From the NCBI GenBank assembly GCA_964486995.1, contig CAZAOV010000002.1:26559-90558 (forward strand): a stretch of DNA of 64,000 bases, written 5' to 3'. A program made the translations under genes and the position numbers. The notes under the pieces are model-generated. The model searched no databases, had not been told where the DNA came from, and saw only the letters and a list, made by a program, of their open reading frames with translations. Numbering within the stretch: position 1 is the stretch's first letter; each line of letters opens with the position of its first letter. Shown in pieces: positions 7,651 to 61,646 of the stretch. Source of the DNA: an uncultured Gammaproteobacteria bacterium. Lineage in GTDB: Bacteria > Patescibacteriota > Patescibacteriia > SG8-24.

Positions 7651-8337
7651 TTAATCCTGGCTTTTCGGGGCCAACTCCTCAGCTTTGACGCCTATATTCA
7701 AACCTGGCCCCAGCCTCTTATCCATCTGCTGGAGAAAATACGGCCGGATTTCTTTCGTGAGGGTGCGAAGAATGCTCTGATCACGCCATCGTTTTTCCTG
7801 GATTCGCCGGACGAACTGGTCACGCCTGAATATCATCTCACCTAAATCAATTAAAATAACTTTACCTGCCGTGGTTATGCCGCAATTTTGAGCCGGCAAA
7901 AAGGACTGGGTCATAACTCCCTGTTGCAGCAACCCGAGTGTTAAATCAACATAGCGATCGATAATTTGCCGCTGTTCAGGCAGCTCGACGCGATATAACT
8001 CCTCACCGACCGTGGCCGCCACGCAATCCTGTTCGTAACAACAATTCGGTAAAAACACAGGATTTCCCAATAGGGCTCCATCCAATAAGTGCGCTCTTTC
8101 AGCTAAACCGGATAAAGACTCACGTATGTGACTCTCTACGATGCTTGAACGCTTAAACACTTGGTGCGGGGACAGGCGGCTTTCTTTAAGTACCCTCCAT
8201 AGTCGTTCCCGCCTCGACAGTGGCACCTTCAATACACGCCCCCCGCCAGCCGAAAAAACCGCGAACTGCCAACCTTGACCGATTCGCTCGCCGGCTGTCG
8301 TGATGCGTACCTTTGTCGTAATCATACTTTCTTTCAT
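7651..8337 (-). CDS. protein-kinase-like fold protein (RIO/Kdo-kinase-like motifs), hypothetical
   Basis: H-x-x-DGALLGN and KVILIDLGE resemble the HGDLHxGN and IDFG motifs of the RIO/KdkA/APH kinase superfamily. Confidence 0.35.
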   Translation of the reverse strand: MKESMITTKVRITTAGERIGQGWQFAVFSAGGGRVLKVPLSRRERLWRVLKESRLSPHQVFKRSSIVESHIRESLSGLAERAHLLDGALLGNPVFLPNCCYEQDCVAATVGEELYRVELPEQRQIIDRYVDLTLGLLQQGVMTQSFLPAQNCGITTAGKVILIDLGEMIFRRDQFVRRIQEKRWRDQSILRTLTKEIRPYFLQQMDKRLGPGLNIGVKAEELAPKSQD

Positions 8338-22443: not shown

Positions 22444-22463
22444 CTTTCCCTCCGACCAGCACT

Positions 22464-22502
22464 TATCCCCAGAATAGGTGCCAGGGACCTATTCTGGGGA
22501 TA
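22464..22502. repeat. 37-39-bp palindromic element, copy 2, inverted relative to copy 1 (loop tgccaggga)
   Basis: Same stem as 20514-20550 but with the loop reverse-complemented. Lies in the 5' leader of the ABC exporter gene. Confidence 0.7.
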
Positions 22503-22584
22503 AAGCACCTTTTGTATAAGAACAAAACGACCGTGCTCTTCTTCCGAACACGGTCTAGGGAATTCTCTAAATTAAGCTAAAAAC

Positions 22585-36678: not shown

Positions 36679-39102
36679 CTAGGTGCGAAGCTTCGCGTCC
36701 GCCTCTTTCTCCAATGCCTGCAAAATATTCCCAATCTCTGCCTCAACCTCCTCGGCAGTCAAAGTCTTCTCCGGATGCAAAAACGACAAGTGCATCGCAA
36801 AACTCTTCATTGAATCACCCAATTTAGAATCTCGATACACATCAAACAACTCTACTCCACTCAGTAAATCGGAAGCCGCCAATATCGCCTGCTCAACCTT
36901 CGCATACTCCACCGACTTCCCAACCACTACCGCCAAATCCCGCCGAACTGGCGGAAACTGCGGAATCGGCTCATAGCCACCGCCCACCTCGTCGGACTCC
37001 ACCAACACAGCCAGATCAAACTCAGCAATACATACCCGCCCATCAATACCAAACGCTTCCAGAACCAGCGGATGTATCTCGCCCATGGTTCCAATCGCGG
37101 TATCGCCGATATACAAGTCAACAGTGCGTCCGGGATGCCACAGCTGAGATTTCGGATCGATGCGGCCAGTAGAAACCTTGCGATTTAATTTATTAAAGAG
37201 ACCCTGCGCCGCACCTTTCACCTGACGGAACAAAGTGTCGTCTTTATGCGAACCATAGGCCGCTATCAAAACCGTCGATCGTTCCTCTGGCAAATTCGCT
37301 CCATCGTTCTTGATGTAAATATTACTCACCTCGAACAGGCCATTCTCCGGAAACAGACCTTCGTTATGAGCGATGGTGTCCAATGTATCAGGCACCAAAG
37401 ACGGTCGCATGTATTCAAACTCTTCGGACAGAGGATTAGCGATGCGCATTAAATTTTTAGCTTCGAAACCAGCTTTCTCCATAATGTCCCGCGAACCAAA
37501 CGAGTAATTCACCACCTGAGTGAAGCCGGACGAAGAAAGGTAGACTTTGGCCGTATCCTCGGCCGCCAATACCGAATCGACCGGTGCCACCGGCAACTCA
37601 CCGGTCGGAATCTCGGACGGTAAATTCGCGTAACCATACACGCGAGCAATCTCCTCGGCAAAATCCCGCTCCCCTTCTATGTCGCGCGCCCGCCAATACG
37701 GTACCTCCACGTCATACACCGGCTTACCTTTTTTGATGGTCGAACGCCTGCTCATGCTGAAACCCAAGGCTTTCAAAATCTTTACCATCTTGGCGGCTGG
37801 AATCTTCACGCCAATCAAACGCTCGGCATGTTCGGGTCGGAACTGATATTTCACCCTGCGATGCGAATCAGACCGGACATCAAATACTTTGCTCGCCACC
37901 GTACCGCAGGCAACACGCTGACAAAGTTCCACTGCACGCGCGAGCGCGGCCTGAGTTTGCTCTTCCGGCAACCCCTTCTCAAAACGCAATGAGGAATCAG
38001 ACCGCACATCTAGCGCACGACCGGTACGACGTATAGAGACTGGATCAAACGTCGCAGCCTCGAACACGATAGTGGTTGTACCCTCGGTTACGCCTGTGTT
38101 TTCACCGCCCATCACACCGGCTACCGCCACCGGCTTCTCGGCATCCGCAATCACCAGCTGATCCGCAGTCAGTTCCTTGGTCTCGCCGTCGAGCAATAAA
38201 ATCTTCTCACCTTTCTTGGCTTTGCGAATACGAATCTTTCCACCGGCTAACCTTTCATAGTCAAACGCGTGCATGGGCTGACCCAACTCCAGCATTACGT
38301 AATTGGTAATGTCCACGATGTTATTAATCGGCCTAAAACCCGACATCAGCAATCGATTCTTCAGCCACCATGGCGACGGACCCACCTCAATGTTCTCCAT
38401 CACGACAGCCTGATACCGCGAACAGAGTTCCTTATCCTGATTATCGACCTCGAACGGTACGGCTTTGGTACCTTTAGGCATGGACGGTGCTATGGCTTCC
38501 TTCCAAGTGAGCGGCTCTTCTAAAATTGCTGAAGTCTCACGCGCGAGACCGACCATACTGAACGCATCCGGCCGATTCGTGGTGATTTCGATATCGAAAA
38601 CCGTATCCTCCAAATCCAATGCCTTGGCCAGGGCGGTACCGGGTTTAGCCTTGCACCAGCTCATGTCCATAATCTCCTTGTCTGCATGCGGGAAACCATC
38701 TTCTAGACCGATTTCAGACGCGGCACAAATCATGCCCGCACTTTTTACCCCTCGAATCTCGGCCGGCTCCAGCTTTATCGGCTCCCCTTCTCCGTGCCAG
38801 CGCACTTCGGCACCCGGCAGCGCAACCGCGACTTTCATGCCCTCCCCCAAGTTACTGCCACCACAAACGATGTCGGCCTTTTCCTTGCCCAAATCAGTCA
38901 CGGCGATACGCAACTTGTCGGCGTTCGGATGATGCTTAATCTCCAAAATCTTGCCGACCACCATATTGTCGAACCGTGGAGCTTGTGGAAACAACCGCTC
39001 CACCCCCGGTCCGGACAACGAAACACGGCGCGCAAAATCTTCGGCCGTTGCTTTCACGCCGACGAACTCTTTGATCCAGTTATACGATGCGAGTATATTC
39101 AT
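36679..39102 (-). CDS. pheT: phenylalanine--tRNA ligase beta subunit
   Basis: 807 aa. Typical PheT N-terminus (MNILASYNWIKEF) with the B3/4, B5 and FDX-ACB domains in canonical order. Confidence 0.95.
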   Translation of the reverse strand: MNILASYNWIKEFVGVKATAEDFARRVSLSGPGVERLFPQAPRFDNMVVGKILEIKHHPNADKLRIAVTDLGKEKADIVCGGSNLGEGMKVAVALPGAEVRWHGEGEPIKLEPAEIRGVKSAGMICAASEIGLEDGFPHADKEIMDMSWCKAKPGTALAKALDLEDTVFDIEITTNRPDAFSMVGLARETSAILEEPLTWKEAIAPSMPKGTKAVPFEVDNQDKELCSRYQAVVMENIEVGPSPWWLKNRLLMSGFRPINNIVDITNYVMLELGQPMHAFDYERLAGGKIRIRKAKKGEKILLLDGETKELTADQLVIADAEKPVAVAGVMGGENTGVTEGTTTIVFEAATFDPVSIRRTGRALDVRSDSSLRFEKGLPEEQTQAALARAVELCQRVACGTVASKVFDVRSDSHRRVKYQFRPEHAERLIGVKIPAAKMVKILKALGFSMSRRSTIKKGKPVYDVEVPYWRARDIEGERDFAEEIARVYGYANLPSEIPTGELPVAPVDSVLAAEDTAKVYLSSSGFTQVVNYSFGSRDIMEKAGFEAKNLMRIANPLSEEFEYMRPSLVPDTLDTIAHNEGLFPENGLFEVSNIYIKNDGANLPEERSTVLIAAYGSHKDDTLFRQVKGAAQGLFNKLNRKVSTGRIDPKSQLWHPGRTVDLYIGDTAIGTMGEIHPLVLEAFGIDGRVCIAEFDLAVLVESDEVGGGYEPIPQFPPVRRDLAVVVGKSVEYAKVEQAILAASDLLSGVELFDVYRDSKLGDSMKSFAMHLSFLHPEKTLTAEEVEAEIGNILQALEKEADAKLRT

Positions 39103-39110
39103 AGGATTTC

Positions 39111-39236
39111 AGTGTAGAAGTATAGATGTATAGAAGTATAGATGTGTAGAAGTTTAGGAGACCCACCCATTTCATCAGACGTCTTGCGTAAGTGCGCGGG
39201 TCTGCTACACCCCTACACTACTACACATCTACACTG
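39111..39236. repeat. family-A palindromic repeat element, copy 1 (GTRTAGRRG heptamer arrays flanking a conserved core)
   Basis: Left arm of tandem gtgtagaag/gtatagatg units. Core ...gacgtcttgcgtaagtgcgcgggtctgctacac. Right arm of inverted ctacac units. Confidence 0.7.
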
Positions 39237-39244
39237 TTTGATGA

Positions 39245-40306
39245 CTAGAACTGATTTAAGAACCTAAAATCGCTCTTGTAGAGCACTCGAATATCATCAA
39301 TCATAATCCCCGACCGCATCATCATTGTTCGCTCCACGCCCCAGCCGAACGCTAGCGCGCTGTACTCTTCTGGATCAACGCCGCCCGCGGTCAGAACGTT
39401 CGGATGCAGTATGCCCGCACCGCCGAGCTCCAGCCAACCTTCTTTGCAGAGTCGGCACTTGCCGCCATGTTCGTTCTTGCCCGAGCCATTGCAGATACCA
39501 CAGCTGATGTCGATTTCAAAACTGGGTTCAGTAAAGCGGAAATGAAACGGTCGCAGTCGCGTGTGGCGACCTTCGCCAAAATATTCGCGCGCAAAATGAT
39601 CCAAAATTCCTTTCAGGTGGGTCACAGATACGTTGCGGTCCACGAGCAAACCCTCGAACTGGTGAAACATCGGCGTGTGAGACACGTCAATCTGCCGCCG
39701 GAAAGTCTTAGAGATGTTCATCATGCGAATCGGCAATTTGCCCTTCTTCAATTCGCGTGCGCTACCCGAAGTGGTGTGCGGCGTCAGCACCATCTTGCCG
39801 AATTTGCCACTCACCGGCGCATCAATAAAAAACGTTTCCCATTCGTCGCGCGCCGGATGGTCGGGCGGCATGTTCAAAGACTCAAACGCATACCAATCCC
39901 ACTCGACTTCCGGATGGCGCACGCGCGTGAAACCGATGCGACTAAAAATATCCACGATGTCGCGCATGGCCTGGGTGACCGGATGCATGTGACCTTCCTC
40001 CGGTGCGATGCCGGGCACGGTCACGTCGATGCTGTCGGTCTCAACGAGCGACGCATATTCAGCTTGGCGCAACTCTCGACGGCGCCTCTCTACGGCCGCG
40101 CGAATTTCTTCTTTGTGCTGATTCGCCAACTGCCCGACTTCTTTACGTTCCTCAGCAGACAACGAGCCCAGTTTCTTCATGGCCTGACTAAACTCGCTCT
40201 TACGACCCAGATGGACAGTTTCGACCTCGTCTAAAGTACGGCTGTCCGTTGCTTCGGACACCGCTTTTAGGATTCGGTCTCGGATTTCATTCAGTTCTTG
40301 TTTCAT
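39245..40306 (-). CDS. pheS: phenylalanine--tRNA ligase alpha subunit
   Basis: Class II core with the FRRQ...HTPMFHQFEGL motifs. Confidence 0.95.
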   Translation of the reverse strand: MKQELNEIRDRILKAVSEATDSRTLDEVETVHLGRKSEFSQAMKKLGSLSAEERKEVGQLANQHKEEIRAAVERRRRELRQAEYASLVETDSIDVTVPGIAPEEGHMHPVTQAMRDIVDIFSRIGFTRVRHPEVEWDWYAFESLNMPPDHPARDEWETFFIDAPVSGKFGKMVLTPHTTSGSARELKKGKLPIRMMNISKTFRRQIDVSHTPMFHQFEGLLVDRNVSVTHLKGILDHFAREYFGEGRHTRLRPFHFRFTEPSFEIDISCGICNGSGKNEHGGKCRLCKEGWLELGGAGILHPNVLTAGGVDPEEYSALAFGWGVERTMMMRSGIMIDDIRVLYKSDFRFLNQF

Positions 40307-40403: not shown

Positions 40404-41525
40404 CTAGCCAGTGAAAACATTGGTTATCGACTGCATAATACGGTCTCCAAACCGCACCACATCGCCGTAAGTCACTACTAACACGAGCAGCATCAGCAAC
40501 GCAAAGCCAACATTATGGATCATGGCCTCAATCTGACGGCTCACCGCGCGACCCCGAATCTTCTCTATAATAAGGAAGAGCAGGCGGCCACCGTCGAGCG
40601 CCGGGAACGGCAAAATATTTAGAATCCCCAAGTTGATTGATAGCAAAGCTATGAACTGCAGCAAGTGCCGCCAACCGTGCTGAGCCACTTCGCCGGCTAC
40701 GACCGCAATGCCGACCGGTCCGGAAATGTCGGCCGGAGCACCTCCACCGGTGAACAAATCACCGAGAATCGTACCGAAAGCTATCAAAATCTGATACGTG
40801 AACGAGCCGGTCATCCATAGACCTTGAATCGGCGCCATATATACCGGATACGCCACCATGCCAGTCTTCATCAGGCTCACGCCGATTCCGGGTTTACCGG
40901 TTATTTCCAAAATCGCCGGCGCAACCGAAACCTCTACCTGCTCCCCCTCCCTTTCCAGCACCAAATCCATCGGCACGTTACCGCGACTGCCGGTGAGCAA
41001 GGCAAATCCTTCGATATTGGTCATGCGTTCGTCTTCGGCTAGCCAGATGACATCACCTATCTCGATCCCTGCTGCGGCAGCCGGAGTGCCCTCAAGCACG
41101 TTCACCACATGCAACTTCTCTTGGCTCACTGTCGCGTAAGACGGAACCGGCGATTCGTCATCGACAATCTGCGGTAGGCCAAACATATAGCCAATCGAAA
41201 ACAGCACCCAGGCCAAAATAAAATTCATCACCACACCAGCTACGATAACTTGCATGCGCTGCCAGCCGCTCTTAGCGCTGAAACTATCCGAATCTTTGGC
41301 GTTTTCCCCTCCTTCACCTTTGAGGCGTACGAAACCGCCGATTGGAATGGCGTTAATCGACCAAATCATGTCGTTATGTTTTTTGCCCCAGAGCCGAGGC
41401 GGGAAACCAAAGCCGAACTCCTCGACTTTGATACCTGCGCGACGAGCCATAAAAAAATGCCCGCATTCATGCGCGAACACGATTACTGAGAGGACGATAA
41501 CGAAGGTTAAGATGGTGGTGAACAT
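40404..41525 (-). CDS. rseP: RIP metalloprotease RseP-like (M50 site-2 protease)
   Basis: HECGHFFMARRAG (HExxH) in TM1, a PDZ-like middle region, and polytopic topology. Confidence 0.85.
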   Translation of the reverse strand: MFTTILTFVIVLSVIVFAHECGHFFMARRAGIKVEEFGFGFPPRLWGKKHNDMIWSINAIPIGGFVRLKGEGGENAKDSDSFSAKSGWQRMQVIVAGVVMNFILAWVLFSIGYMFGLPQIVDDESPVPSYATVSQEKLHVVNVLEGTPAAAAGIEIGDVIWLAEDERMTNIEGFALLTGSRGNVPMDLVLEREGEQVEVSVAPAILEITGKPGIGVSLMKTGMVAYPVYMAPIQGLWMTGSFTYQILIAFGTILGDLFTGGGAPADISGPVGIAVVAGEVAQHGWRHLLQFIALLSINLGILNILPFPALDGGRLLFLIIEKIRGRAVSRQIEAMIHNVGFALLMLLVLVVTYGDVVRFGDRIMQSITNVFTG

Positions 41526-41572: not shown

Positions 41573-41680
41573 GGGTGTAGAGGTATAGAGGTGTAGAGGT
41601 GTAGGAGATCCGCACACTCACGAAAAACGCCTAGTGCAAATGAGGGGGTCTCCTACGCCTCTGCTTCTACACTTCTATAC
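41573..41680. repeat. family-A palindromic repeat element, copy 2
   Basis: Left arm gtgtagaggtatagaggtgtagaggtgtaggagatcc, a core containing ctagtgcaaatga, then inverted units. Confidence 0.7.
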
Positions 41681-41683
41681 TTT

Positions 41684-42520
41684 TTACCCGACCGCAGCAG
41701 CGCGCACGTTTACTTCGCTGCCGAGCCATTCCTGGGCGAGCGCGACGAATTGTTCTGTGCGGTCGCTGACATAGAACTGATGTTGGCCACGGGTACGCAA
41801 CGAAGCGTCTAGTTCTGGATGCTGCTGAAGATACGCGGCGAGTTCAGCCACTGCATCATGCGCCGGGTCAACCAGGGTGACGCTCTCCCCCATCGCCTGA
41901 CCGATAACGGTACGCAGGAACGGATAGTGCGTACAGCCCAGAATAAGCGTATCTATACGTGATAGTTGTAGCGGGCGCAAGTATTCTCTGGCAATCGACG
42001 CGGTTTCTTTGCGGGCGGCCCAACCTTCCTCAACGAGTGGTACAAACAATGGACAGGGCGTCGAAAAAACTTTGGTCCGCGGAGCGAGTCGTTTCATCTT
42101 GCGTTCATAGATGCCGGAACCGACCGTGCCACGAGTGCCGACCACACCAACATGCCCTTTGGTGACCGCAGCCGCGCGCTTTACCGCTGGCATTACTACC
42201 TCGAACACCGGCACGTCAACGTTGCGACGCAAGGTCTCGACGCCGTGCGCGGACACGGTGTTGCAGGCGACCATGATAACTTTTGCGCCTTTGTCGAGCA
42301 AAAACTCCGCATTCTCCAGCGCATATTTTTGAATCAGCTCGCGGCTCTTGATGCCATAGGGAGTGCGTGCAGTATCGCCAAAATAAACCACCCGGCGACC
42401 GGGTAGTTGTCTTAGCACTTCCTTAGCGACGGTCAGGCCTCCGAGACCTGAGTCAAATATACCTATCATATTGCGCTGAAATTGCCCTTCAATAATGGCA
42501 GTTTGGGAGCTAAGAATCAA
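41684..42520 (-). CDS. murI: glutamate racemase
   Basis: IGIFDSGLGGLTV and GCTHYP motifs. Confidence 0.9.
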   Translation of the reverse strand: MILSSQTAIIEGQFQRNMIGIFDSGLGGLTVAKEVLRQLPGRRVVYFGDTARTPYGIKSRELIQKYALENAEFLLDKGAKVIMVACNTVSAHGVETLRRNVDVPVFEVVMPAVKRAAAVTKGHVGVVGTRGTVGSGIYERKMKRLAPRTKVFSTPCPLFVPLVEEGWAARKETASIAREYLRPLQLSRIDTLILGCTHYPFLRTVIGQAMGESVTLVDPAHDAVAELAAYLQQHPELDASLRTRGQHQFYVSDRTEQFVALAQEWLGSEVNVRAAAVG

Positions 42521-42545
42521 GGGTTAAGAGTTGGGGTGTTTTAAG

Positions 42546-42643
42546 AGTATAGAAGTATAGGAGTGTAGGGGTGTAGGATACTCGCTCATTTGCACTAGAC
42601 GTCATGCGTAAGCGGGTCTACTACACTTCCATGCTTCTACGAG
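42546..42643. repeat. family-A palindromic repeat element, copy 3 (inverted relative to copy 2)
   Basis: Its core tcatttgcactag is the reverse complement of ctagtgcaaatga in copy 2. The two copies bracket murI. Confidence 0.7.
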
Positions 42644-42689
42644 GTATCGGACATTTCGTGTGGGTAAATAGTCTCTTTTTCTTCTAGTT

Positions 42690-43750
42690 CTAGCGCGTTT
42701 CTGGAACATTTATGGTCATATGACCATAAATGGAAGCAAAAAGAGGTGCGACAAGTGCGGCAAACCCATGCAGCGATGGGGTCAAACCAAGACCGGAAAG
42801 CAGCGCTGGAAATGCAGACCCTGTTCCAAGACCGGCACGAGAGTCAGGCACGATGTGACCGCCGGACATAGGCAACGCCTGTTTCTGAACTGGGTGCGCA
42901 GCAAGGAGTCCGTGGCCGACACGGCAAGGAAGGCAGGTGTGACCGCACGAACCGCGCACCGCTGGTTCGCCCCGTTCTGGAAAGCCCCGCCGCGGACCTG
43001 CAGCCGAATCGCTGCACGCATCCTCGTTGTCGACGCGGTGTCGGTCGTGAAGCACGAGGCGGTGGCGCTGCTCGCCGGCGACCCCGGACCTCCGGAACCG
43101 GTCGGCTGGGAGTTCGCCGCGCGCGAGTGCCACGAGTCCTGGCGGTCGTTCTTCCTCGGCCTTCGCAGCCGCGGGGCGGACCCCGGGTTCGTGGTCTGCG
43201 ACGGCCAGAAGGGCCTGCTCAAGGCGGCCCGGGAAGTCTTTCCACATGCGGCGGTCCAGCGTTGCGTTGTCCACGTGCACCGCCTGGCCATGGCCTGGCT
43301 GATGCGAAAACCGAAAACCGCGGCGGGCCGCGAGCTGCGGCCAATCGTCTCCGCGCTGCTCCTGGTGCGCACGCCGGAAGATCAGGACACATGGCTGGAG
43401 TCACTGCGCTCGCGGGAAATCAGGCACGCCGAGTTCCTGAAGGAGAGGACGTACGGCGAGAACGGATGGTGGTACACGCACCGGAAGCTGAGGGCGGTCA
43501 GGTCGCTGCTGCGCAACGCCGCACCCGACCTGTTCCGCTACGTCGACGACCCTCCGGTGCCGAGGACCTCGAACCACGTCGAGGGAGGGCTGAACAGCCG
43601 AATCAAGGAGCTGCTGCGCTCGCATCGGGGGATATCAAAAAGCCAGCGCATGGCGCTGGTGTGCTGGTACCTGGAGTCGAGACGGGAGGAGAAAAAACCC
43701 CACACGAAATGTCCGATAGCTCGTTTTGCCATACGCTTCTTATGATGCAC
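42690..43750 (+). mobile_element. IS1-family insertion sequence (limits approximate), anomalously GC-rich
   Basis: Segment of about 68-70% GC inside roughly 52% GC DNA. Encodes a fused zinc-ribbon/HTH/DDE transposase. Terminal inverted repeats could not be defined by eye. Confidence 0.55.
42720..43745 (+). CDS. IS1-family transposase (fused InsAB-like single ORF)
   Basis: N-terminal CxxC...CxxC zinc ribbon and HTH. FVVCDGQKGL matches the IS1 MTDGWPLY region. SNHVEGGLNSRIKELLRSHRGISKS matches the IS1 [24 protein letters not shown] region. Confidence 0.7.
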   Translation: MTINGSKKRCDKCGKPMQRWGQTKTGKQRWKCRPCSKTGTRVRHDVTAGHRQRLFLNWVRSKESVADTARKAGVTARTAHRWFAPFWKAPPRTCSRIAARILVVDAVSVVKHEAVALLAGDPGPPEPVGWEFAARECHESWRSFFLGLRSRGADPGFVVCDGQKGLLKAAREVFPHAAVQRCVVHVHRLAMAWLMRKPKTAAGRELRPIVSALLLVRTPEDQDTWLESLRSREIRHAEFLKERTYGENGWWYTHRKLRAVRSLLRNAAPDLFRYVDDPPVPRTSNHVEGGLNSRIKELLRSHRGISKSQRMALVCWYLESRREEKKPHTKCPIARFAIRFL

Positions 43751-43912
43751 TCTCCATGGGAAGCGTGTCTAGTATATGGGGTACAGTCCAATACCATTTT
43801 TTCACGTCATTGACAACGCAGTATACATATTATCCACAATTCAAACCTGTTTTGATTTGTGGATAAAAAAACCCGCTAATCACGGATATTTATTGTCTCG
43901 ACCACCTAAATT

Positions 43913-44140
43913 CTATCGAAAATATGCATCTACCGGTACACGGGAAAAGAAAGTATAAGCCACCACCCCTAGTACCACCAGAACGTGCAAAACCCTTTTC
44001 CCGGTTTTCACCATGCTAATCTTTGGCTTTTTGCTGGCGGACGCGGCCACATGACGGGCGGCTTCACAGCAGTTTTGTTTTCGCATTTTGTTTCCTTCTA
44101 GATGTCTATTTTCATTATACCAAGTTATCCACATATCCAC
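43913..44140 (-). CDS. doubtful small ORF inside the DnaA-box region
   Basis: 75-aa ORF with one hydrophobic segment. No RBS, and it overlaps the DnaA boxes. Confidence 0.15.
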   Translation of the reverse strand: MDMWITWYNENRHLEGNKMRKQNCCEAARHVAASASKKPKISMVKTGKRVLHVLVVLGVVAYTFFSRVPVDAYFR

Positions 44141-44220
44141 AAGTATCTAACCTATGATGATATTTTATAAAAAAGGTCAATACCCCTAGTAAATAATTGA
44201 TTATTGCTCTGTAGATAAAC

Positions 44221-44251
44221 AAAAACTCCGCTTTTTAAAGACGGAGTTTTT
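44221..44251. terminator. rho-independent terminator hairpin (aaaaactccg-ctttttaaaga-cggagttttt)
   Basis: Perfect 10-bp stem with flanking A/T runs, downstream of the mutase gene. Confidence 0.6.
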
Positions 44252-44278
44252 GATCCAATTTAGTAGTTATCCACAACC

Positions 44279-45652
44279 TTATCCACGAATGATTTTTAGC
44301 AGTTCATCGCGATGTATTTTCATATTTTCCTCATCCTTGGCTTCCAGATTCAGTCGGATTTTAGGTTCCGTATTCGATGCCCGAACACTGAACCACCAGT
44401 CCCCTTCCGGCTGTTCTGGATTCATGAATTCCATGCGTACACCGTCGATTCTAATCACGTTTGAGGCCTCACCTGCATACTTTTCCTCGAGCGCCTTAAA
44501 TACTGCTTCTTTATCTGCGACTTCGGAGTTAATCTCACCAGAATGAAAATACCGTAGAAGGGGCGCCACGAGTTCAGATAACGGCTTCCCGGTCTCGGAA
44601 ATAAGCTGCATAAACAACAACATCACATAATCAGAGGATTCCGCACCACAAAACTCACGGAAATAAAAATGATTAGACAGCTCACCAGCAAAAACAGCGT
44701 TAACTTCGCGCATATGAGGCTTAATCAAGCCATGTCCAACGCGAGTCATAACCGGCTTTCCTCCAGCCGCCTCAATCTCCTCAACCGTGGCCATGCTCTC
44801 GCGAACATCATACAAAACAGCTTCACCCTGATTATCACGCAACACTTCGCTAGCAATCAAAGCCGTAATAAAATCGCCGCGCACGGTCTTGCCTTTCTCA
44901 TCGACCAATCCGATTCGATCTCCGTCACCATCAAAAGCCACGCCCAAATCCGCACCAGAATCAACCACTTTCAGCTTTAGTGCATCTAACGTCTTCTCCT
45001 TGAGCGGATTTGCCTCGTGGTTCGGAAACGTGCCGTCCAGCTCCCGGTAAAGCACCTCGTATTCACAGCCGGCAATCTTTGACAGCACGTCATCGATAAT
45101 AATTCCCTCCATGCCATTTCCGGTATCTACCACCACTTTCATCGGTTTTATTTTGCTCACGTCAGCGTCGGAAAACAGCTTCTTTAAATAATCATCTCGG
45201 ATATTTTTTTCGCTCAATGAGCCATTATTTTCAACCGGCTCATATGGACCGGCCAACGCCAAATCGCGTATGTCATCCATGCCATTTGAACCACCAATCG
45301 GCAACGCATCACCGAGACAAATCTTTACGCCATTATATTCGCTCGGGTTGTGCGAGGCTGTCACCATCACCCCGGCTTCGTGCTCCGCATACTGGCAAGC
45401 CGCAAAATAAATCATCGGCGTGGTAACCATGCCAACATCAACCACATCGCTTCCCTGCGACATGATTCCTTTGGCGAGTGCTTCGAACAGCTCCGGCGTA
45501 GTCGAGCGCATGTCTTTTCCGACCGCAATCACCTTGGCATCGGTGAATTTAACGATTGCTTGGCCAATGCGATAAGCACCATCAGTATCAAGCTGCTCGG
45601 GAGATAAACCTCGGATATCGTAGGCTTTAAAGATAGAACCGTCTAAAGGCAT
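44279..45652 (-). CDS. phosphomannomutase/phosphoglucomutase (alpha-D-phosphohexomutase family)
   Basis: Active-site loop TASHNPSEYNGVK, metal-binding DGDGDR, and sugar-binding loop. Confidence 0.9.
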   Translation of the reverse strand: MPLDGSIFKAYDIRGLSPEQLDTDGAYRIGQAIVKFTDAKVIAVGKDMRSTTPELFEALAKGIMSQGSDVVDVGMVTTPMIYFAACQYAEHEAGVMVTASHNPSEYNGVKICLGDALPIGGSNGMDDIRDLALAGPYEPVENNGSLSEKNIRDDYLKKLFSDADVSKIKPMKVVVDTGNGMEGIIIDDVLSKIAGCEYEVLYRELDGTFPNHEANPLKEKTLDALKLKVVDSGADLGVAFDGDGDRIGLVDEKGKTVRGDFITALIASEVLRDNQGEAVLYDVRESMATVEEIEAAGGKPVMTRVGHGLIKPHMREVNAVFAGELSNHFYFREFCGAESSDYVMLLFMQLISETGKPLSELVAPLLRYFHSGEINSEVADKEAVFKALEEKYAGEASNVIRIDGVRMEFMNPEQPEGDWWFSVRASNTEPKIRLNLEAKDEENMKIHRDELLKIIRG

Positions 45653-45979
45653 ATACGTTGGTGGTTAATTGCGATTTTTCTAATTTAACTGGTTGGAGGG
45701 ATGGAGGCGCAAAAAAAATATAAAGCATATAAGGACAGTAGAGCTGGCGGATAAATGAAGACGCTCTGCCGCCCTTCTGCTCCCAGACACTTGTAAACTA
45801 TACACCCCTCACCACCAGACTGAATCTCTGGGGGTAACTAGACTTGACGCAAAATCCAAAATTCGCCTAAATTATCCCCATTTTTCGTTGACTTTAGCCT
45901 TATTTTTACCTATAATGAAGGTAGGTATAAGTGTAATCACTAAACTGCGGCTAGGCAAATTTTCGTTTATTGAGCGAAG

Positions 45980-46570
45980 TTGCGCCGCATCATGAAATTA
46001 TATATGACCGGACTAACAATAGCTGCCGCGGTCGTTCTCGGCCTCATCCTAATCTTGGCAGTGTGGATAATAGCTGTTTACAACAGTTTAATCACACTAC
46101 GTAACCGCACGGACGAAGCCTGGTCCGATATCGACGTTCAGCTCAAACGCCGTTATGACCTGATTCCAAATCTGGTTGAGACCGTTAAGGGTTACGCCTC
46201 ACACGAACGCGAAACCCTGGAGAAAGTCACCCAAGCTCGCAATATGGCGATGAGTGCGGAAGGCAAACACGATAAGGCCGAAGCTGAAAATATGCTTTCC
46301 CAAACTCTGAAATCTTTGTTCGCGGTAGCTGAGAACTACCCGGACCTGAAGGCGTCACAGAACTTCCTCCAACTGCAGGATGACCTGAAAGATACCGAGG
46401 ATAAAATACAAGCTGCGCGCCGTTTCTATAACGCAAACGTCCGGGACTTCAACACAAAGATACAGATTTTCCCAAATAACGTTATCGCCGGTCAGCTAAA
46501 TTTCGAAAAATACGAGTTCTTCGAAATTGAGAACGAAAAGGAGCGCGAGAATGTACAAGTAAAGTTCTAG
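45980..46570 (+). CDS. lemA: LemA family protein
   Basis: N-terminal TM plus a LemA core ([31 protein letters not shown]...YNANVRDFN). Confidence 0.85.
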
Positions 46571-46576: not shown

Positions 46577-46656
46577 TGTAGCGGCAGGGCTTGCTCCTGC
46601 TTATTGAGCCGAGTTCGCGCTTGCAACCGAAAGCAGGGGCAAGCCCTGCCGCTACG
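46577..46656. repeat. family-B palindromic repeat element, copy 3
   Basis: Arms gcggcagggcttgctcctgc and gcaggggcaagccctgccgc. Located 10 nt upstream of the htpX start. Confidence 0.65.
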
Positions 46657-46665
46657 AATCTGACT

Positions 46666-47556
46666 ATGACAACTTACGACTTCATATCATCGAACAAGCA
46701 GAAGTCGGTCCTGCTAATAATCGTATTCACGGTATTGGTCGTTGCAGTTGGTGCGCTAGTTGATCGTATGTACGGCGGCGGCGGATTTATTCTAGCGATT
46801 GCGATTGGTTACTCGCTGTTCAGTTCGCTGATTGGATTCTACTCGGGAGACAAAGTCGCACTGGCAGTGTCTGGCGCAAAAGAAATCAGCGAAGCCGACA
46901 ACCCGTACTTGTATCGAATGGTTCAAAATCTTTGCATCAGCGTCGGCATGCCGATGCCTAAGCTGCACGTGATGGATGATCCGGCGATAAACGCTTTTGC
47001 CACTGGACGCGACCCGGAGCACTCGTCGATTGCGGTGACGACCGGGGCGCTACAGCACCTGGAAAACGAAGAACTGGAGGGTGTGCTGGCACATGAGCTG
47101 TCGCATATAAAAAACTACGACATTCGAGTGATGACTCTGGTGATGGTATTGGCGGGAACGATTGCGATTATTGCTGACTTGGCGTTGCGCTCGTTCATCT
47201 GGGGTGGTGGTCGCCGCAAACGCGAAGGCGGCGGAGCGCTCCTGATAGTTGGGCTGATCCTGATGATAATCGCGCCGATTGTGGCGCAACTCATAAAACT
47301 GGCCGTTTCCAGAAAGCGCGAGTATCTAGCCGACGCATCAGGGGCACTAATGACCAGGTTTCCAGAAGGGCTGGCGCGAGCGCTAGAAAAAATCAGCGCG
47401 CAAAATCAACCGATGAAAAAAGCTTCCGGGGCAACGGCACATCTGTTCATAGCGAATCCGTTCCGCGGAAAATCGATGGCTTCGTTCTTCGGAACGCATC
47501 CACCGGTAGAAAAACGCATTCAAGCCCTGCGAAAAATGGCGGGGACAGGAATATAA
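46666..47556 (+). CDS. htpX: protease HtpX (M48 family zinc metalloprotease)
   Basis: HELSHIKNYD (HExxH), N-terminal TM helices, and lemA-htpX synteny. The start MTTYDF was chosen because the repeat occupies the upstream part of the ORF-track call. Confidence 0.9.
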   Translation: MTTYDFISSNKQKSVLLIIVFTVLVVAVGALVDRMYGGGGFILAIAIGYSLFSSLIGFYSGDKVALAVSGAKEISEADNPYLYRMVQNLCISVGMPMPKLHVMDDPAINAFATGRDPEHSSIAVTTGALQHLENEELEGVLAHELSHIKNYDIRVMTLVMVLAGTIAIIADLALRSFIWGGGRRKREGGGALLIVGLILMIIAPIVAQLIKLAVSRKREYLADASGALMTRFPEGLARALEKISAQNQPMKKASGATAHLFIANPFRGKSMASFFGTHPPVEKRIQALRKMAGTGI

Positions 47557-47573
47557 CTAAAACGTATAGAAGT

Positions 47574-47673
47574 GTAGGAGTGTAGGGGTGTAGAAGACCA
47601 GCCCACTTACGAATGACGCCCAACGTAAGCGAGCGGGTCTTCTACACTTCTACACCTCTAAACTTCTACACTC
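47574..47673. repeat. family-A palindromic repeat element, copy 4
   Basis: gtatagaagtgtaggagtgtaggggtgtagaagacc ... core acgtaagcgagcgggtcttctacac ... inverted units. Confidence 0.7.
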
Positions 47674-47707
47674 AAAAACAAAAAATAAAAATAAGGGGTC
47701 AAACTAT

Positions 47708-50329
47708 ATGCATACCGATATCCTCGATAAATTCACCGCACACCTCAAGAATGCGCTGGCGAAATCATATTCTTTAGCGGCAGAACTGTCCTCTACCGGT
47801 ATCCATCCGGAACACCTGCTATTGTCGCTCCTTATGCAGCGAGGAAGCATGGGTGGCGAATTGCTCCGTCAGTCCAATTTAAGCGCCGAAGAGCTGCGTC
47901 AGATGCTCATCGCGGTGAATCAGTTCACCCCGGGCGACGGTAAGGAAGGTGCCCCCAAACTATCGGCAGAATCAAAGCGAGCCATCGAGAAGGCGGTTTT
48001 AGTCGCCAATACGCACGAGCATCGCTACGTCGGTACCGAACATTTATTGTTCGGTATTTTAGAAATCGGCTCGCCGGTCGTTGATGCAATCCTAACTGAC
48101 CAAGAAGTGGATATCGTCTGGCTCCGTGATCAAATTATCAATACTTTAAACAGCACTTCCAAGTTCCCGGAAATCACCGAAACGTTCGAGTCTGGTGTGG
48201 TGCCTGGACAGGACATCAGCACGGAAGATCAGGCGATTGCGCTCGAAGCGAGCGAAGCCACGCAAGTCGGCAGCAAAACCCCAGCATTGGATTTCTTTGC
48301 CGTGGACCTAACCGACCCCAAGGTCCAAGAGGATATAGATCCGGTTATCGGCCGGAGCACGGAAATCAATCGGCTGGTTCAGGTACTGTCCCGACGCACC
48401 AAGAACAATCCCGTATTGCTCGGTGAACCAGGCGTTGGCAAGACGGCCATCGTGGAAGGTCTGGCCAAAAAGATCGTGCAGGGTGATGTGCCGGAAGTGC
48501 TGGCTGACAAACGTATCCTGGCGCTGGATCTCGGAATGATGATCGCCGGAACAATTTATCGCGGTGAATTTGAAGGTCGCATCAAACAGATTACCGATGA
48601 GGTAAAGGCTAATCCGAACGTGATTGTTTTCATTGACGAAATGCACAACATCATGGGTGCCGGTTCGACCAACGGCTCTATGGATGCGGCAAACCTCCTG
48701 AAACCTGCGCTGGCTCGAGGCTACATGCACTGCATAGGTGCGACTACTATTTCTGAATTTAAAAAACACATTGAGTCCGACGGAGCGCTGGAGCGTCGAT
48801 TTCAATCCATAATGGTCGACCAGCCCAGCCTCGAAGCCACGGTAGAAATTCTAAAAGGCTTACGAGACGGCTATGAAAAACATCACGAGGTTACCATTGC
48901 TGATGACGCAATTCATGCCGCAGTCGAACTTTCTGACCGCTATCTCACCGAGCGTTTCCTTCCGGATAAGGCGATTGATCTTATTGACGAGGCGTCCGCG
49001 CGTGCGCGCGTTTCCCGCGGTGATGACTCCAAGGTCAAGCAGTTATCTCGTCTGGAATCGGAAATCGAAAAAGTACGCGCCCGCAAACAAGGTGCGGTAC
49101 ACGGCGAGAACTTCATCGAGGCATTGGAACTTAAAGGTGAAGAAGGCCGCCTAGTTAAACAACTATCCAAGACCAAAGAGGGTAACCGCAACCGAAAGCG
49201 AAGCAGAGCCTCCACAATCACACGCAATCATATCGCAGAAATTATCGCGCAGGCCACCGGAATTCCAATGAATGAACTCGTGTCAGAAGAGAGGGTCCGA
49301 CTGCTAAATCTGGAAACACATCTTGGCGCCAAAATTCATGGCCAAGACGAGGCCATCAATCAAGTAGCCGAAATGGTACGTCGTGCCAAAGCCGGCATGG
49401 CGCATCCGCAACGTCCGTTGGCATCGTTCATGTTCCTTGGTCCGTCTGGTGTAGGAAAGACCGAGCTGGCCAAGGTGCTCGGCGCGGAAATCTTCCATGA
49501 TCCAGAAGCTGTGGTTCGTATCGACATGTCCGAATTCTCTGAAGGATTCAATATGTCCAAGCTGGTTGGTGCTCCGGCAGGCTATGTCGGCTACCGCGAA
49601 GAGACCAAGCTGACCGACTTGGTGAAACGCAAACCTCACTCGTTGGTGCTATTTGACGAAATAGAAAAGGCCCATCCGGATGTGCATAATTTGCTTCTGC
49701 AGATTTTGGAAGATGGCCACATCACCGATGCCACAGGAAGAAAAATCAACTTCAAAAATACTATCGTAATAATGACTTCCAACGTCGGTGCCGCGCAGCT
49801 TCAAGCCTCTGGAATCGGCTTCTCGGCCGACGGCCATGACGCCAATCTACACATGGAAGACATTAGCTCAACCATCAATAGCGAGTTGCAGACCTCATTC
49901 CGGCCGGAATTCCTAAACCGTATCGACAAGGTGGTGGTGTTCCGCTCGCTCAACAAGAAAGATTTGGAGTCTATCGCCGGCCTGCACTTCAGTCAGTTGG
50001 CTGACCGCCTGGCCACCGACCACAGCATCATCCTAGAGGCCGACGACAGCGCCATTAAATTCCTAGCCGATAAAAGCTGGGATCCGTCATTCGGCGCGCG
50101 CACAATACGACGTCAACTGCAAGAGCATGTTGAGAGCCCGCTAGCTAAGTCATTACTCGCCGAAGACCACGGCCCCGGCGACAAAATAAAGATTACGGTC
50201 AAGAAGGGCAAGATTGATTTCAGCAAGAGCAAGAAAACCGCGAGTAAGACCGCCAGGAAGACTACGTCATCGGGCAAAGAGCCAAATGCCTCGAAATCAA
50301 AGAAGAAAGCAAATGCCAATGCCAAGTAG
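47708..50329 (+). CDS. clpC: ATP-dependent Clp protease ATP-binding subunit, ClpC-like (two AAA+ modules)
   Basis: Two Clp_N repeats at the N-terminus. Walker A sites [15 protein letters not shown] and [15 protein letters not shown]. Short inter-domain linker, so ClpC/ClpA-type rather than ClpB. Confidence 0.85.
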
Positions 50330-58075: not shown

Positions 58076-59443
58076 ATGAGAACCGCTACTCAGATATTCG
58101 TTTGTTCTAAGTGTGATGCGCAGTCGCCGAAATGGACTGGGCAGTGTTTGGAGTGCGGGGGTTGGGGGACGGTAGCGGCAGCGGCACAACAGGCGAGGGG
58201 CGATGAGTCAGGAGCAGAGAGAGGAGCAATTCAGGCTGCCCCCGCAAAAGTTGAGGCGTTCAGCTCCATCAAGACAGAAACCACTCAACGTTCAGAGATT
58301 GGCATTGATGAAATTGATCGGGTGTTTGGCGGTGGAGTTGTGCCGGGGTCGGTGACGCTGATTGGTGGTGAGCCGGGTATTGGTAAGTCGACGATTTGCC
58401 TGCAGATCGCGGGGCGAGTGGCCATTCAGGGCAAGGTGGTTTACGCGTCGGGTGAAGAATCCGGTTCGCAGGTGAAGGGGCGCGCGCAGCGCATTGGCGC
58501 ACCCGCAGACAACCTGCTGTTTCTCGGTAAGACCGAAGTGGAAACAATTATTGCTACTTTGCATCGCGAAAAACCGCTGCTAGCGGTGATTGATTCGGTG
58601 CAGATGCTGCGCTCAGCCGAGATTCCGGCCGAGACCGGTGCAGTGAGTACTATCCGCGGTGCCACAGCCAAGCTCGTGGCTTATGCCAAGTCGTCAGACA
58701 CCCCCCTGCTGCTGGTCGGACACGTGACCAAAGACGGTAATGTGGCCGGACCAAAAACCTTAGAACACCTGGTTGACGCCGTGTTATCTTTCGAAGGGGA
58801 GCGAACCGGACAGCTGAGATTGCTGCGCGTGCTCAAGAACCGCTACGGCTCCACCGACGAGACCGGACTGTTTGAGATGACCGGTGAAGGGCTCAAAGAA
58901 ATCAAAAATCCTTCTGCTTATATGCTGGATGAGCGCGGCGACGCGGCATCTGGGAATGTTGTTTCGTGCATTTTGGAAGGGACGCGTCCTGTACTGGTCG
59001 ACATTCAGGCTCTAGTCACGAAAACTGCGTTCGGCTATCCGACGCGGCGCGCCTCGGGCATGGATCAATCGCGGTTAGAGATGCTAATCGCAGTGCTGGC
59101 CGCGCGCGGCGGAATCGACCTTAGTCAGCACGATGTTTACGTGAACATCGTCGGCGGATTAAAACTAAAAGATCCGTCAATAGATTTAGCGGTTTTGATG
59201 GCGCTTACTTCAGCTCGCAAAGATGAACCGTTCCGCGACATCGCTGTCTGGGGCGAGGTCGGCTTGGGCGGAGAGGTGCGGCCGGTACCGTCAACCGACC
59301 GCCGTATCACTGAAGCCACCAAACTAGGAATCAAAAAAGCGGTCGCCTCTCTGCCAAGAAAGAAAACCGCCATCAAACTTAGTGATGATATTGAGGTCAA
59401 AGATGTTAGGAATGTTAGAGATGCGTTGGGATTGTTGAAGTAG
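58076..59443 (+). CDS. radA: DNA repair protein RadA/Sms
   Basis: N-terminal C4 zinc finger (CSKCDAQSPKWTGQCLECGGWGT), Walker A GGEPGIGKST, KNRYG motif, and a Lon-like C-terminal domain. Confidence 0.9.
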   Translation: MRTATQIFVCSKCDAQSPKWTGQCLECGGWGTVAAAAQQARGDESGAERGAIQAAPAKVEAFSSIKTETTQRSEIGIDEIDRVFGGGVVPGSVTLIGGEPGIGKSTICLQIAGRVAIQGKVVYASGEESGSQVKGRAQRIGAPADNLLFLGKTEVETIIATLHREKPLLAVIDSVQMLRSAEIPAETGAVSTIRGATAKLVAYAKSSDTPLLLVGHVTKDGNVAGPKTLEHLVDAVLSFEGERTGQLRLLRVLKNRYGSTDETGLFEMTGEGLKEIKNPSAYMLDERGDAASGNVVSCILEGTRPVLVDIQALVTKTAFGYPTRRASGMDQSRLEMLIAVLAARGGIDLSQHDVYVNIVGGLKLKDPSIDLAVLMALTSARKDEPFRDIAVWGEVGLGGEVRPVPSTDRRITEATKLGIKKAVASLPRKKTAIKLSDDIEVKDVRNVRDALGLLK

Positions 59444-59552: not shown

Positions 59553-61646
59553 CTACTCCAAATGCGCTACCTCAATCGAAGACCCCACAAACGCCCGCAA
59601 CGCCGGGCGTTTAGTTAATTCTGGATCGTCAGCAAGCATCTCGGCCGCTACATTCCGCGCATCACGCACTAGTTCCATGTTTACAGCAGATGCCAATTTC
59701 AAATCAGTGACGTGACCTGATTGCTGACTGCCGAGTATGTCACCCGGTCCGCGCATGGCCAAGTCTTTTTCCGCCAACTTGAAACCATCGTTGGTTTCTT
59801 CCATTGCCCTCAGTCGTTCGCGCACCGTCACACCGTAAGTCGACGGAAATAAATAGCAATAAGACTGATGGTCGCTACGCCCGACCCGACCACGAAACTG
59901 GTGAAGCTGTGCCAAACCAAATCTGTCCGCTCCCTCAACGCACATGGCAGTTGCATTGGGCACATCTACCCCCACCTCAATAACCGATGTCGAAACCAAA
60001 ACTTTTATTTCGTCATCTTTAAACCGAGCCATAATTTCTTCCTTTTCAGCCGCGGCTAATCGACCGTGCAACATACCCACTTCGATATTCGGAAATACTT
60101 CTTTCTTCAGTCGCTCATACTCTTCGGCAACCGAAGTGACGCCCAGCATATCGGACGGATCGATGAGCGGACACACTACAAATACCTGTCTCCCCTGCTC
60201 AATCTGTTCGCGAATCGCTTTGTATGCATCCTGACGACCGCGCGGAGACACCACTTTAGTGACAATCGGTTTGCGGCCGCCGGGCTTTTCCTTCAGCAGC
60301 GACAAATCCAAATCGCCGTACATTGCCAGTTCGAGCGAACGCGGAATCGGCGTGGCGGTCATTGATAACAGATGGGGTTCCATTCCGCCGCCTGCACCCT
60401 TACCGCGCAACGACTGCCGCGTACGCACACCAAAACGATGCTGTTCATCAACCACCGCCAAACCCAGAGCGGCAAATTTCACCCCCTTCTCAACTAGCGC
60501 ATGCGTGCCGATCACCACATCCGCCTGTCCAGCTTCGACCATGTTTCCAAGCTGTTCGCGCTTGGCCTTACCTTTATGTTCCTCATCTCTGCCACCAATA
60601 AACGCACGACGATAGGCATTGGTCCACAATACCAACGAGGGCCCTTTCGGTCCGATTAGCTTACATAACGTTCGGTAATGCTGTAGTGCCAATATTTCGG
60701 TCGGCGCCATTATCGCGGTCTGGTAATCAGAGGCCGCTAGATTAACTGCCAACACCGCCGCCACTGCGGTTTTACCGCTACCCACGTCACCGTTCAATAA
60801 ACGATTCATGGGCACGCCACGCTCCATGTCCCGAATTGCCTCCCATGAAGTTCGCCGCTGGTCGTCGGTCAATTTAAACGGCAATGATTCGATAAATGAA
60901 GTTACGGCCGCTCTATCGAATTTAATCGTCGAAGCTTTGGCCTGCCGGCGATACAGCTTAGTGCGCCCCATGGCAATTTGCACACGCAATAATTCATCAA
61001 ATACCAACCGTCGACGGGCCTCTTCAGCCTCCTCTACCGTCTCGGGAAAGTGAATCGACTGTAGGGCCTGTGGCAATGACATCAAGCCCAAATTATCCAA
61101 AATATCGGTATCTAAATGATCAGGTACGGATTCCAACGACTGCAACAATTTACTTATGAATTTTCGTAAAGAAAACTGCGTCACCCCAGCGGACAAAGGA
61201 TACACCGGCATCATATCGCGCACATTATTCTCGGCACCGCTCGCCATATCGTAAATCGGATTTGAAAGCCGCAGGCCATACTTGCTTCGTGTCACTTTGC
61301 CTGCGAACTTGTATGTCTCCCCCACCTTGAGGTAACGCGATAGGTACGGCTGATTGAACCAAATCGCCGTAATCGTTCCATGACCATCGGTGATTTCAGC
61401 TTCAGAAATGGTCATCCGCCGCCGCCGAAACGCCCGCCGACTCTTGATGCTCTGCACCTGAGCTACCACACTCACATCCATCCCCGCATCCAACGACATG
61501 ATGGAAGAGCTCTCAGCAAAATTCTCATACCGAAACGGCCAATGATAAACCAGGTCACGAATCGTGACGATATCCATGGCGGCGAGCGCTTCTTTCTGTT
61601 TTTTAGTAATACCCGGCAGGGCGCTAATTGGCTGTTCTGGCTGCAT
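59553..61646 (-). CDS. recG: ATP-dependent DNA helicase RecG
   Basis: Wedge domain followed by helicase motifs (GDVGSGKTAVA, DEQHRFG, TATPIPRS). Confidence 0.9.
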   Translation of the reverse strand: MQPEQPISALPGITKKQKEALAAMDIVTIRDLVYHWPFRYENFAESSSIMSLDAGMDVSVVAQVQSIKSRRAFRRRRMTISEAEITDGHGTITAIWFNQPYLSRYLKVGETYKFAGKVTRSKYGLRLSNPIYDMASGAENNVRDMMPVYPLSAGVTQFSLRKFISKLLQSLESVPDHLDTDILDNLGLMSLPQALQSIHFPETVEEAEEARRRLVFDELLRVQIAMGRTKLYRRQAKASTIKFDRAAVTSFIESLPFKLTDDQRRTSWEAIRDMERGVPMNRLLNGDVGSGKTAVAAVLAVNLAASDYQTAIMAPTEILALQHYRTLCKLIGPKGPSLVLWTNAYRRAFIGGRDEEHKGKAKREQLGNMVEAGQADVVIGTHALVEKGVKFAALGLAVVDEQHRFGVRTRQSLRGKGAGGGMEPHLLSMTATPIPRSLELAMYGDLDLSLLKEKPGGRKPIVTKVVSPRGRQDAYKAIREQIEQGRQVFVVCPLIDPSDMLGVTSVAEEYERLKKEVFPNIEVGMLHGRLAAAEKEEIMARFKDDEIKVLVSTSVIEVGVDVPNATAMCVEGADRFGLAQLHQFRGRVGRSDHQSYCYLFPSTYGVTVRERLRAMEETNDGFKLAEKDLAMRGPGDILGSQQSGHVTDLKLASAVNMELVRDARNVAAEMLADDPELTKRPALRAFVGSSIEVAHLE

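Follow-up and report, generated by a model that had tools for sequence, protein, structure and literature searches.

A DnaA-box cluster in an Uhrbacteria-like Patescibacteria genome: probable operator of a lineage-specific small gene rather than a replication origin

The DnaA-box cluster and its setting

The DNA analyzed here (the window) is a 64-kb stretch of contig CAZAOV010000002.1 from an Uhrbacteria-like genome of the Patescibacteria, and at positions 43830-44287 it carries a dense cluster of DnaA boxes. On the left of the cluster lies an insertion sequence (IS; 42639-43724, plus strand), and on the right it is bordered by the 3′ end of a phosphomannomutase/phosphoglucomutase gene (the mutase; 44279-45652, minus strand). 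Within the cluster, a gene for a 57-amino-acid protein is read from the minus strand (43913-44086). An earlier reading of the sequence by itself (the sequence-only reading) had correctly placed the cluster between the IS and the mutase gene and proposed it as a chromosomal replication origin (oriC). We consider it probable that the cluster is instead a non-origin operator for this lineage-specific small gene. The operator reading was supported by the presence of a box in the core promoter at every locus of the small gene and by the absence of the cluster from syntenic relatives that lack the gene, and the non-origin reading by the finding that the cluster does not sit at a switch of replication direction. 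Genes in the window were called from Pfam scans of the large open reading frames (ORFs), and the best relatives of the mutase were in Patescibacteria (Candidatus Uhrbacteria and Parcubacteria).

Box coordinates refer to the whole 64-kb stretch, and a perfect box is TTATCCACA, the exact high-affinity DnaA consensus, from which the host's own preference may differ. Scanning the window yielded four perfect matches within 43830-44287, one of them inverted, as the sequence-only reading had stated, and three boxes with one mismatch (44133, 44210, and 44279) where it had counted two, giving a total of seven and not six. Across the whole 64 kb, 0.25 perfect boxes were expected, and at least five were reached in none of 100 shuffles. 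The density of seven boxes in 458 bp, against 15 boxes with no more than one mismatch in the other 63.5 kb, corresponded to a Poisson P of ~1e-10 by our own estimate.

The leftmost perfect box (43830-43838, plus strand) lies 3′ of the small gene and pairs with the inverted perfect box (43858-43866, minus strand) as the arms of a 16-nt palindrome (inverted repeat I5). A third perfect box (44125-44133, plus strand) falls inside the 17-nt spacer of the small-gene promoter, and the one-mismatch box ATATCCACA next to it (44133-44141, plus strand) provides, when read on the minus strand, the -35-like hexamer TTGTGG (44142-44137) of the same promoter. Farther right are the one-mismatch box TTATCTACA (44210-44218, minus strand), the fourth perfect box (44267-44275, plus strand), which lies directly 3′ of the mutase stop codon, and the one-mismatch box TTATCCACG (44279-44287, plus strand), which overlaps the mutase stop and the last two codons. 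The sole perfect box of the window outside the cluster was found inside lemA, at about codons 28-31 (46062-46070, minus strand); the earlier reading had reported this single further box, with its start set at 46063.

The small gene and its promoter

The small gene starts with an ATG at 44086, preceded by a GAAGGA ribosome-binding site (44098-44093), and ends before a terminator-like hairpin with a T-run (43860-43887, minus strand), the T-run of which merges into the box at 43858-43866. The encoded protein, MRKQNCCEAARHVAASASKKPKISMVKTGKRVLHVLVVLGVVAYTFFSRVPVDAYFR (MRKQNCC...GKRVLHVLVVLGVVAYTFF...PVDAYFR), has by inspection a basic, Cys-bearing N-terminus and a single C-terminal hydrophobic helix of the tail-anchored type. 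It matched no Pfam or NCBIfam family, and a profile search recovered only 7 sequence clusters among 5.8 billion. Differences from orthologues at codon positions 1/2/3 numbered, for example, 3/9/21 and 6/12/27. This third-position bias, together with the ribosome-binding site and the gene's own terminator, indicated that the small ORF is a genuine gene on which purifying selection acts.

The predicted promoter of the small gene has the layout TTGTGG-17-TATAAT with an extended TG, and boxes fill its -35 and its spacer. The extended -10, TGgTATAAT (44114-44122, minus strand), was read from the sequence and is invariant in the lineage alignment. A simple scan for consensus promoters missed this promoter, whose -35 matches at 3/6 positions only. 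Upstream of it, an AT-rich spacer (44142-44209) separates the promoter from a second hairpin with a T-run (44220-44252, minus strand; inverted repeat I6, 16-nt arms), which is likely the intrinsic terminator of the mutase gene and which is replaced in relatives by a hairpin of different sequence in the same place. Along the minus strand, the order is therefore the mutase stop with the box at 44287-44279, the box at 44275-44267, the mutase terminator, the box at 44218-44210, the AT-rich spacer, TTGTGG, the spacer box, TGgTATAAT, GAAGGA, the 57-codon ORF, its hairpin, and the palindromic box pair at 43866-43858 and 43838-43830.

Conservation of the boxes among relatives

Contigs of relatives (numbered with the prefix L) were fetched through homologues of the mutase, and L013 to L016 were reached via the small-protein profile and not via the boxes. 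Direct searches of genome and metagenome contig collections with the mutase protein returned no relatives. A DnaA box was present in the core promoter of the small gene in 7/7 lineages that carry the gene. In the window, L001, L002, L013, and L016, this box falls within the spacer; L014 and L015 have a perfect box at the -35 hexamer. The loci of L013 to L016 showed the same arrangement as the window throughout. In L001 (81% mutase identity), four perfect and three one-mismatch boxes were found in a layout like that of the window, and in L002 (72% mutase identity), the spacer between mutase and racemase genes held one perfect box.

The window, L001, L002, L013, and L016 share the 20-mer TGTGGATAACTTGGTATAAT without a difference, and all of these except L002 also share an unchanged 30-nt block, TTGTGGATATGTGGATAACTTGGTATAATG. 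In the adjacent ORF, 21-29 of 56-57 third codon positions (37-52%) differ between the window and L001, L013, or L016. The identity of the 30-nt block while so many third positions have changed indicated that the boxes are under selection; judged from these alignments, the operator-promoter is more constrained than the synonymous sites of the small gene. Likewise, the boxes beside the mutase stop and beyond the small-gene terminator stand out as conserved islands amid diverged spacer. The perfect box at 43830-43838 is kept as GTTTGAATTGTGGATAA in L001 and is also kept in L014, L015, and L013, and its inverted partner is kept in L013. The perfect box beside the mutase stop is found at the same place in L001, with one mismatch in L016 and L014 and in the degenerate form TGTTAATAA in L013. 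The one-mismatch box that overlaps the mutase stop is not kept in L001, and the one at 44210-44218 was seen in the window lineage only. The gene that comes next in L013, encoding a giant protein, also has TGTGGATAA-a-TGgTATAAT.

The gene order around the cluster is shared more widely than the cluster. The conserved block consists of recG...clpB-htpX-lemA on one strand and the mutase gene, a variable spacer, and racemase-M50-pheS-pheT...dnaE on the other, an order that holds down to 54% mutase identity, with L017 (on a 744.5-kb contig) as the most distant example. The spacer between mutase and racemase measures 31 bp in L009, 656 bp in L002, 1.4 kb in L007, and 1.8 kb in L011, holds extra genes in L017 and L019, and contains the IS in the window, making it an insertion hotspot for an IS, giant genes, and NYN and radical-SAM genes. 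No perfect box occurred in ~20 kb (+/-10 kb) of L007, L009, L011, or L017, and L019 had a single perfect box (8249, between htpX and clpB) without a cluster. Syntenic relatives without the small gene were thus also without the cluster. Spacer ORFs of L007 (167 amino acids) and L011 (152 amino acids) were considered as homologues of the small protein and rejected, as they are not homologous.

The same comparison bears on the possibility that the cluster is mainly a sink or modulator of DnaA, of the type of datA, DnaA-reactivating sequences (DARS), or the DnaA-box clusters (DBCs) of B. subtilis, which would time initiation while any effect on the small gene is incidental. Several high-affinity boxes in both orientations, including the palindromic pair, would suit such a role, and box numbers have increased in the window and L001 lineages (7 and 7, neighbours included) relative to L002 (1-2). 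In B. subtilis, clusters of this type restrain initiation (PMC3245932). However, the promoter box, and not box number or spacing, is the sole element kept in all lineages, and the single box of L002 would be too few for an effective sink. For titration sites, distance from the origin also matters. We therefore regard a role chiefly as a sink as rather unlikely, and the conservation of the promoter boxes with the small gene favors the alternative that the earlier reading had itself named beside the origin, a DnaA-titration or DnaA-regulated promoter site.

In L002, three tandem units of ~32 nt (CTACCTGTCGAGGGTGACAGGCACTATATTTA), each with a short inverted repeat, lie directly upstream of the DnaA-box promoter (7690-7790). 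Pattern scans with TGTGGATAACTTGGTATAAT returned only the L002 and L004 contigs already known and two unrelated contexts, L005 and L021. In these two, the 21-mer TTGTGGATAACTTGGTATAAT, a DnaA box abutting an extended -10, was found at 4865-4884 of L005, from a Vogelbacteria metagenome-assembled genome (MAG), ahead of a methyltransferase-like gene close to gyrA, and at 1127-1146 of L021, an unrelated short metagenome contig. About one match per 20-mer scan is expected by chance; the two could hint at a recurrent promoter design in Candidate Phyla Radiation (CPR) bacteria, and we draw no conclusion from them.

Strand composition and the question of a replication origin

If the cluster were an oriC apart from dnaA, DnaA would oligomerize on the boxes and open the segment at 44142-44209, with the small gene contained in a bipartite origin. 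Besides the density of the boxes, the AT-rich tract 3′ of the tandem TTATCCACA pair would fit an origin, and the R1-DUE (DNA unwinding element) of E. coli has the same tract-to-box orientation. The window's largest divergent switch of gene strand lies 1.4 kb away, and the raw cumulative GC skew flattens there. A permissive pattern of the basal unwinding system (BUS) is also present (a box, an 11-nt spacer, and TAT GAT GAT), and the corresponding spacer of L002 harbors a small array of tandem repeats, which are described as typical of origins in curated genomes from metagenomes (PMC7111523).

Composition argued against this possibility. The raw cumulative GC skew drops to ~46 kb and then flattens, and gene orientation switches at 45.7-46.0 kb; the possible raw-skew minimum near 46 kb was rejected as a sign of an origin, as it vanishes once gene strand is accounted for. 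The composition test covered 53 genes within the 64 kb, with contrary-strand genes numbering 8 on the left and 4 on the right, a small sample that limits the weight it lends to a non-origin reading. Per-gene regression gave a top-strand skew of 0.077 (+/-0.012) x strand - 0.012 (+/-0.012) x side - 0.049 (+/-0.010), that is, an effect of strand and a constant replication-like term, with no change across 44 kb.

At fourfold-degenerate sites, the coding-strand G+T excess of minus-strand genes was +0.107 on the left and +0.213 on the right, and that of plus-strand genes was +0.011 on the left and -0.005 on the right, with no reversal between the two sides. Left-minus and right-plus genes, both of which would be leading under an origin at 44-46 kb and should match, differed in keto excess (P = 0.011) and in AT skew (P = 2e-4), which counts against an origin there. 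The origin model explained little of the variance (R2 0.003-0.006) compared with a single replichore in which minus-strand genes are leading everywhere (R2 0.22-0.31). AT skew and keto excess carried this signal; fourfold-site GC skew alone was too noisy per gene (P = 0.45). The asymmetry between the mutase side and the clpB side was repeated in four relatives (L002, L007, L009, and L011), whose synonymous sites evolved independently, and was small in the distant relatives L017 and L019. The window thus looks like part of a single replichore, replicated from right to left. A scan for switch points in fourfold composition placed the best one, terminus-like, near 8-11 kb (residual 86.6 vs ~103 without a switch); this signal was weak, as it came from dnaE and one further gene and a search for dif-like sites gave none.

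The AT-rich spacer, which the sequence-only reading had offered as an unwinding element, does exist (77% A+T in 44144-44203) but is not unique within the window, where an A+T content at least equal to it was seen in four segments of 60 bp and in 9-12 segments of 30-40 bp. No array with at least 4/5 consensus DnaA-trios was found beside a box. A permissive trio pattern (at least three NAN within 16 bp of a box) occurred at 44133 and likewise at most boxes in coding regions, making that scan uninformative. A TTGAC motif within the spacer (44180-44176, minus strand) is kept in 5/6 lineages.

The absence of dnaA and dnaN from the window, stated in the earlier reading, was upheld. A tblastn search with B. 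subtilis DnaA gave a best match of E = 0.5, a weak AAA+ similarity in ClpB; the query was confirmed as a genuine DnaA (Pfam Bac_DnaA, 270 bits; Bac_DnaA_C, 108 bits). Pfam scans of the large window ORFs detected neither DnaA nor DnaN, and no other origin-neighbour gene was present in the window. Of the features by which an oriC is recognized, the locus shows a box cluster; a composition switch (in the local 64-kb test), a conserved position, and linkage to dnaA or dnaN were all lacking. Syntenic relatives carry 0-1 boxes, one relative (L009) having a spacer of only 31 bp, and the site is an insertion hotspot. Taken together, the missing fourfold reversal, the relatives without the cluster, and the missing origin neighbours led us to disfavor a chromosomal oriC, which we judge unlikely.

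The insertion sequence and neighboring features

The IS is 1086 bp long and of the IS1249/IS256-like type, with a Zn-binding transposase whose ORF extends 21 nt beyond the right inverted repeat. Its 26-nt inverted repeats (42639-42664 and 43699-43724) are 96% complementary. The earlier description of the element as foreign agreed with the GC content of its ORF, 64.5% in a window of ~52%, which indicated a probably recent acquisition from a high-GC donor; a target duplication could not be seen at the IS. The IS ends 105 bp from the outermost box and is not part of the DnaA element; in relatives, its position is taken by a giant gene or by the racemase promoter.

Since the IS adjoins the cluster and the sites are assigned to DnaA by their consensus, the 9-mer might not be used by DnaA at all, and could instead be the site of another regulator, a mobile-element remnant by the IS, or an integrated replicon's origin. 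However, the motif matches the high-affinity DnaA consensus exactly, occurs four times, and is kept in relatives lacking an IS here. Near the cluster, no rep, partition, or integrase gene was found, neither the cluster nor the IS showed plasmid similarity, and no Rfam family reached threshold in 42400-46100. An integrated-replicon origin, which the sequence-only reading had listed among its alternatives, has no rep gene and no plasmid match in its favor, and we consider a use of the 9-mer other than by DnaA highly improbable.

A giant gene without a Pfam match, encoding 1845-2178 amino acids or more, follows the small gene in four relatives (L001, 3691-9228; L013, 1682-7894; L014, 582-7118; L015, 624-7157). 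In the window, 'tcccATG' with a 5-codon stub remains at ~43770-43750 (minus strand), by the IS. That only this stub is left next to the IS suggested that the giant gene was lost in the window, possibly via the IS.

To the left of the IS lie, all on the minus strand, genes for glutamate racemase (41684-42520) and an M50 protease (40404-41525), pheS (39245-40306), pheT (36679-39102), and dnaE (3993-7472). To the right of the mutase gene are, on the plus strand, lemA (45980-46570), htpX (46591-47556), clpB (47708-50329), and radA (58076-59443), and, on the minus strand, recG (59553-61646). Arrays with an 8-bp period (TAGRRGTR; AGTATAGA, GGTGTAGA, GAGTATAG, and TAGGAGTG) occupy intergenic positions at 39111-39235, 41574-41604, 42545-42639, and 47567-47677, often paired with their own inverse ~50 bp off. 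They look like a palindromic intergenic repeat family, either similar to repetitive extragenic palindromes (REP) or miniature inverted-repeat transposable elements (MITE) or a structured RNA. One such element ends directly against the left inverted repeat of the IS (42639), and the IS may therefore target them.

The lemA promoter has TTGACT at 45888-45893 and TATAAT at 45911-45916, with 17-nt spacing and 11/12 consensus matches. A DnaA-box-like site, TTATCCCCA (45872-45880, plus strand), lies 7 nt upstream of its -35 and aligns with TATCCACA in L001 and L002, with TGTCCACA in L007, and with degenerate sequence in L009 and L011. The conservation of this site suggests that the lemA-htpX-clpB operon is also DnaA-responsive. 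The box inside lemA is perfect in L001 and L002 and reads TTATCCATA in L009; coding constraint, and not DnaA binding, may explain its retention. The TTATCCCCA variant also forms an inverted pair 32 bp apart at 22463 (plus strand) and 22495 (minus strand) of the window (22463-22503), where 20512 is a further position, and another pair just after the mutase gene in L007 (9168 and 9241). These pairs may be weak DnaA sites or sites of another protein.

Proposed regulation and its significance

Under the operator reading, abundant DnaA would occupy the promoter boxes in the -35 and spacer, excluding RNA polymerase and repressing the small gene. Cooperativity or looping with the boxes on either side (142 bp upstream and ~260-300 bp downstream) could stabilize this repression. 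The small protein would be made once the pool of free DnaA declines or shifts elsewhere. With 4-7 strong sites, the cluster probably also holds some DnaA away from the origin, as the DBCs of B. subtilis and datA of E. coli do. Our guess is that the small protein acts on the cell cycle or the envelope as an effector linked to the state of replication. More specifically, and only tentatively, the 57-amino-acid protein may be a DnaA-controlled cell-cycle effector of these ultra-small bacteria, a functional analogue of Sda, of a small division inhibitor, or of a type-I-toxin-like peptide, coupling replication to the envelope or division.

Several points count against an operator. DnaA binding and transcription control at the cluster are predicted from sequence, and the small-gene promoter is a prediction from consensus. 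In addition, seven boxes in 460 bp, an AT-rich tract correctly placed by a tandem pair, and a divergent orientation switch 1.4 kb off are origin-like as well.

To our knowledge, nothing is known experimentally about replication or cell-cycle control in CPR bacteria. A conserved DnaA operator with a promoter and a candidate effector would therefore offer a concrete and testable entry to that control. Literature searches returned no description of a DnaA-regulated gene in Patescibacteria; if the effector reading is true, the cluster would become the first DnaA regulon member to be defined in this phylum. Control of the DBC type is itself known, and what is new here is a very narrowly distributed small protein as the target of a DnaA operator. 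The locus also calls for caution in the automatic prediction of origins in MAGs, as dense perfect boxes, an AT-rich tract, and an orientation switch can be regulatory, and the raw GC skew of short contigs is dominated by gene strand.

Comparison with known systems

The datA locus of E. coli contains about five high-affinity boxes outside oriC and lowers DnaA availability via IHF-dependent hydrolysis of DnaA-ATP. The cluster described here is similarly a group of high-affinity boxes outside oriC; unlike it, datA is no promoter operator, and an activity of the datA type is not inferable from the sequence of our cluster. In the autorepressed dnaA promoter and other DnaA-repressed promoters, a DnaA box overlaps the core promoter and the initiator acts as a classical repressor. 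The small-gene promoter resembles these in having a box over core promoter elements, but differs from autorepressed dnaA promoters in that its target is neither dnaA nor a replication gene and that two abutting boxes occupy its -35 and spacer.

With bacterial oriC and the BUS (PMC8287927; PMC4285127), the cluster shares an AT-rich tract with multiple boxes next to it, a tandem pair among them. It differs from an oriC in lacking a strand-composition switch, syntenic conservation, a consensus trio array, and a neighboring dnaA or dnaN.

The closest likeness is to the DBCs of B. subtilis, where six such clusters lie outside oriC and DnaA regulates the neighboring genes, with sda going up and ywlC, yydA, and dnaA going down (PMC3245932). 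All sequence traits of this class appear to be present in our cluster, namely an intergenic cluster, boxes at a promoter, and constraint on the boxes. The likeness is greatest to the cluster at yqeG-sda (PMC3245932; PMC4447404), an intergenic group of consensus boxes that is separate from the unwinding site of the origin and sits directly at a small-gene promoter. The cluster in the window differs in belonging to the phylum Patescibacteria and in serving, on our interpretation, a 57-amino-acid tail-anchored protein unrelated to Sda. A dual role as in the DBCs, with transcription control combined with restraint of initiation, is plausible here. Unlike sda, which DnaA activates, the small gene has its boxes in the -35 and spacer, a placement that predicts repression by DnaA.

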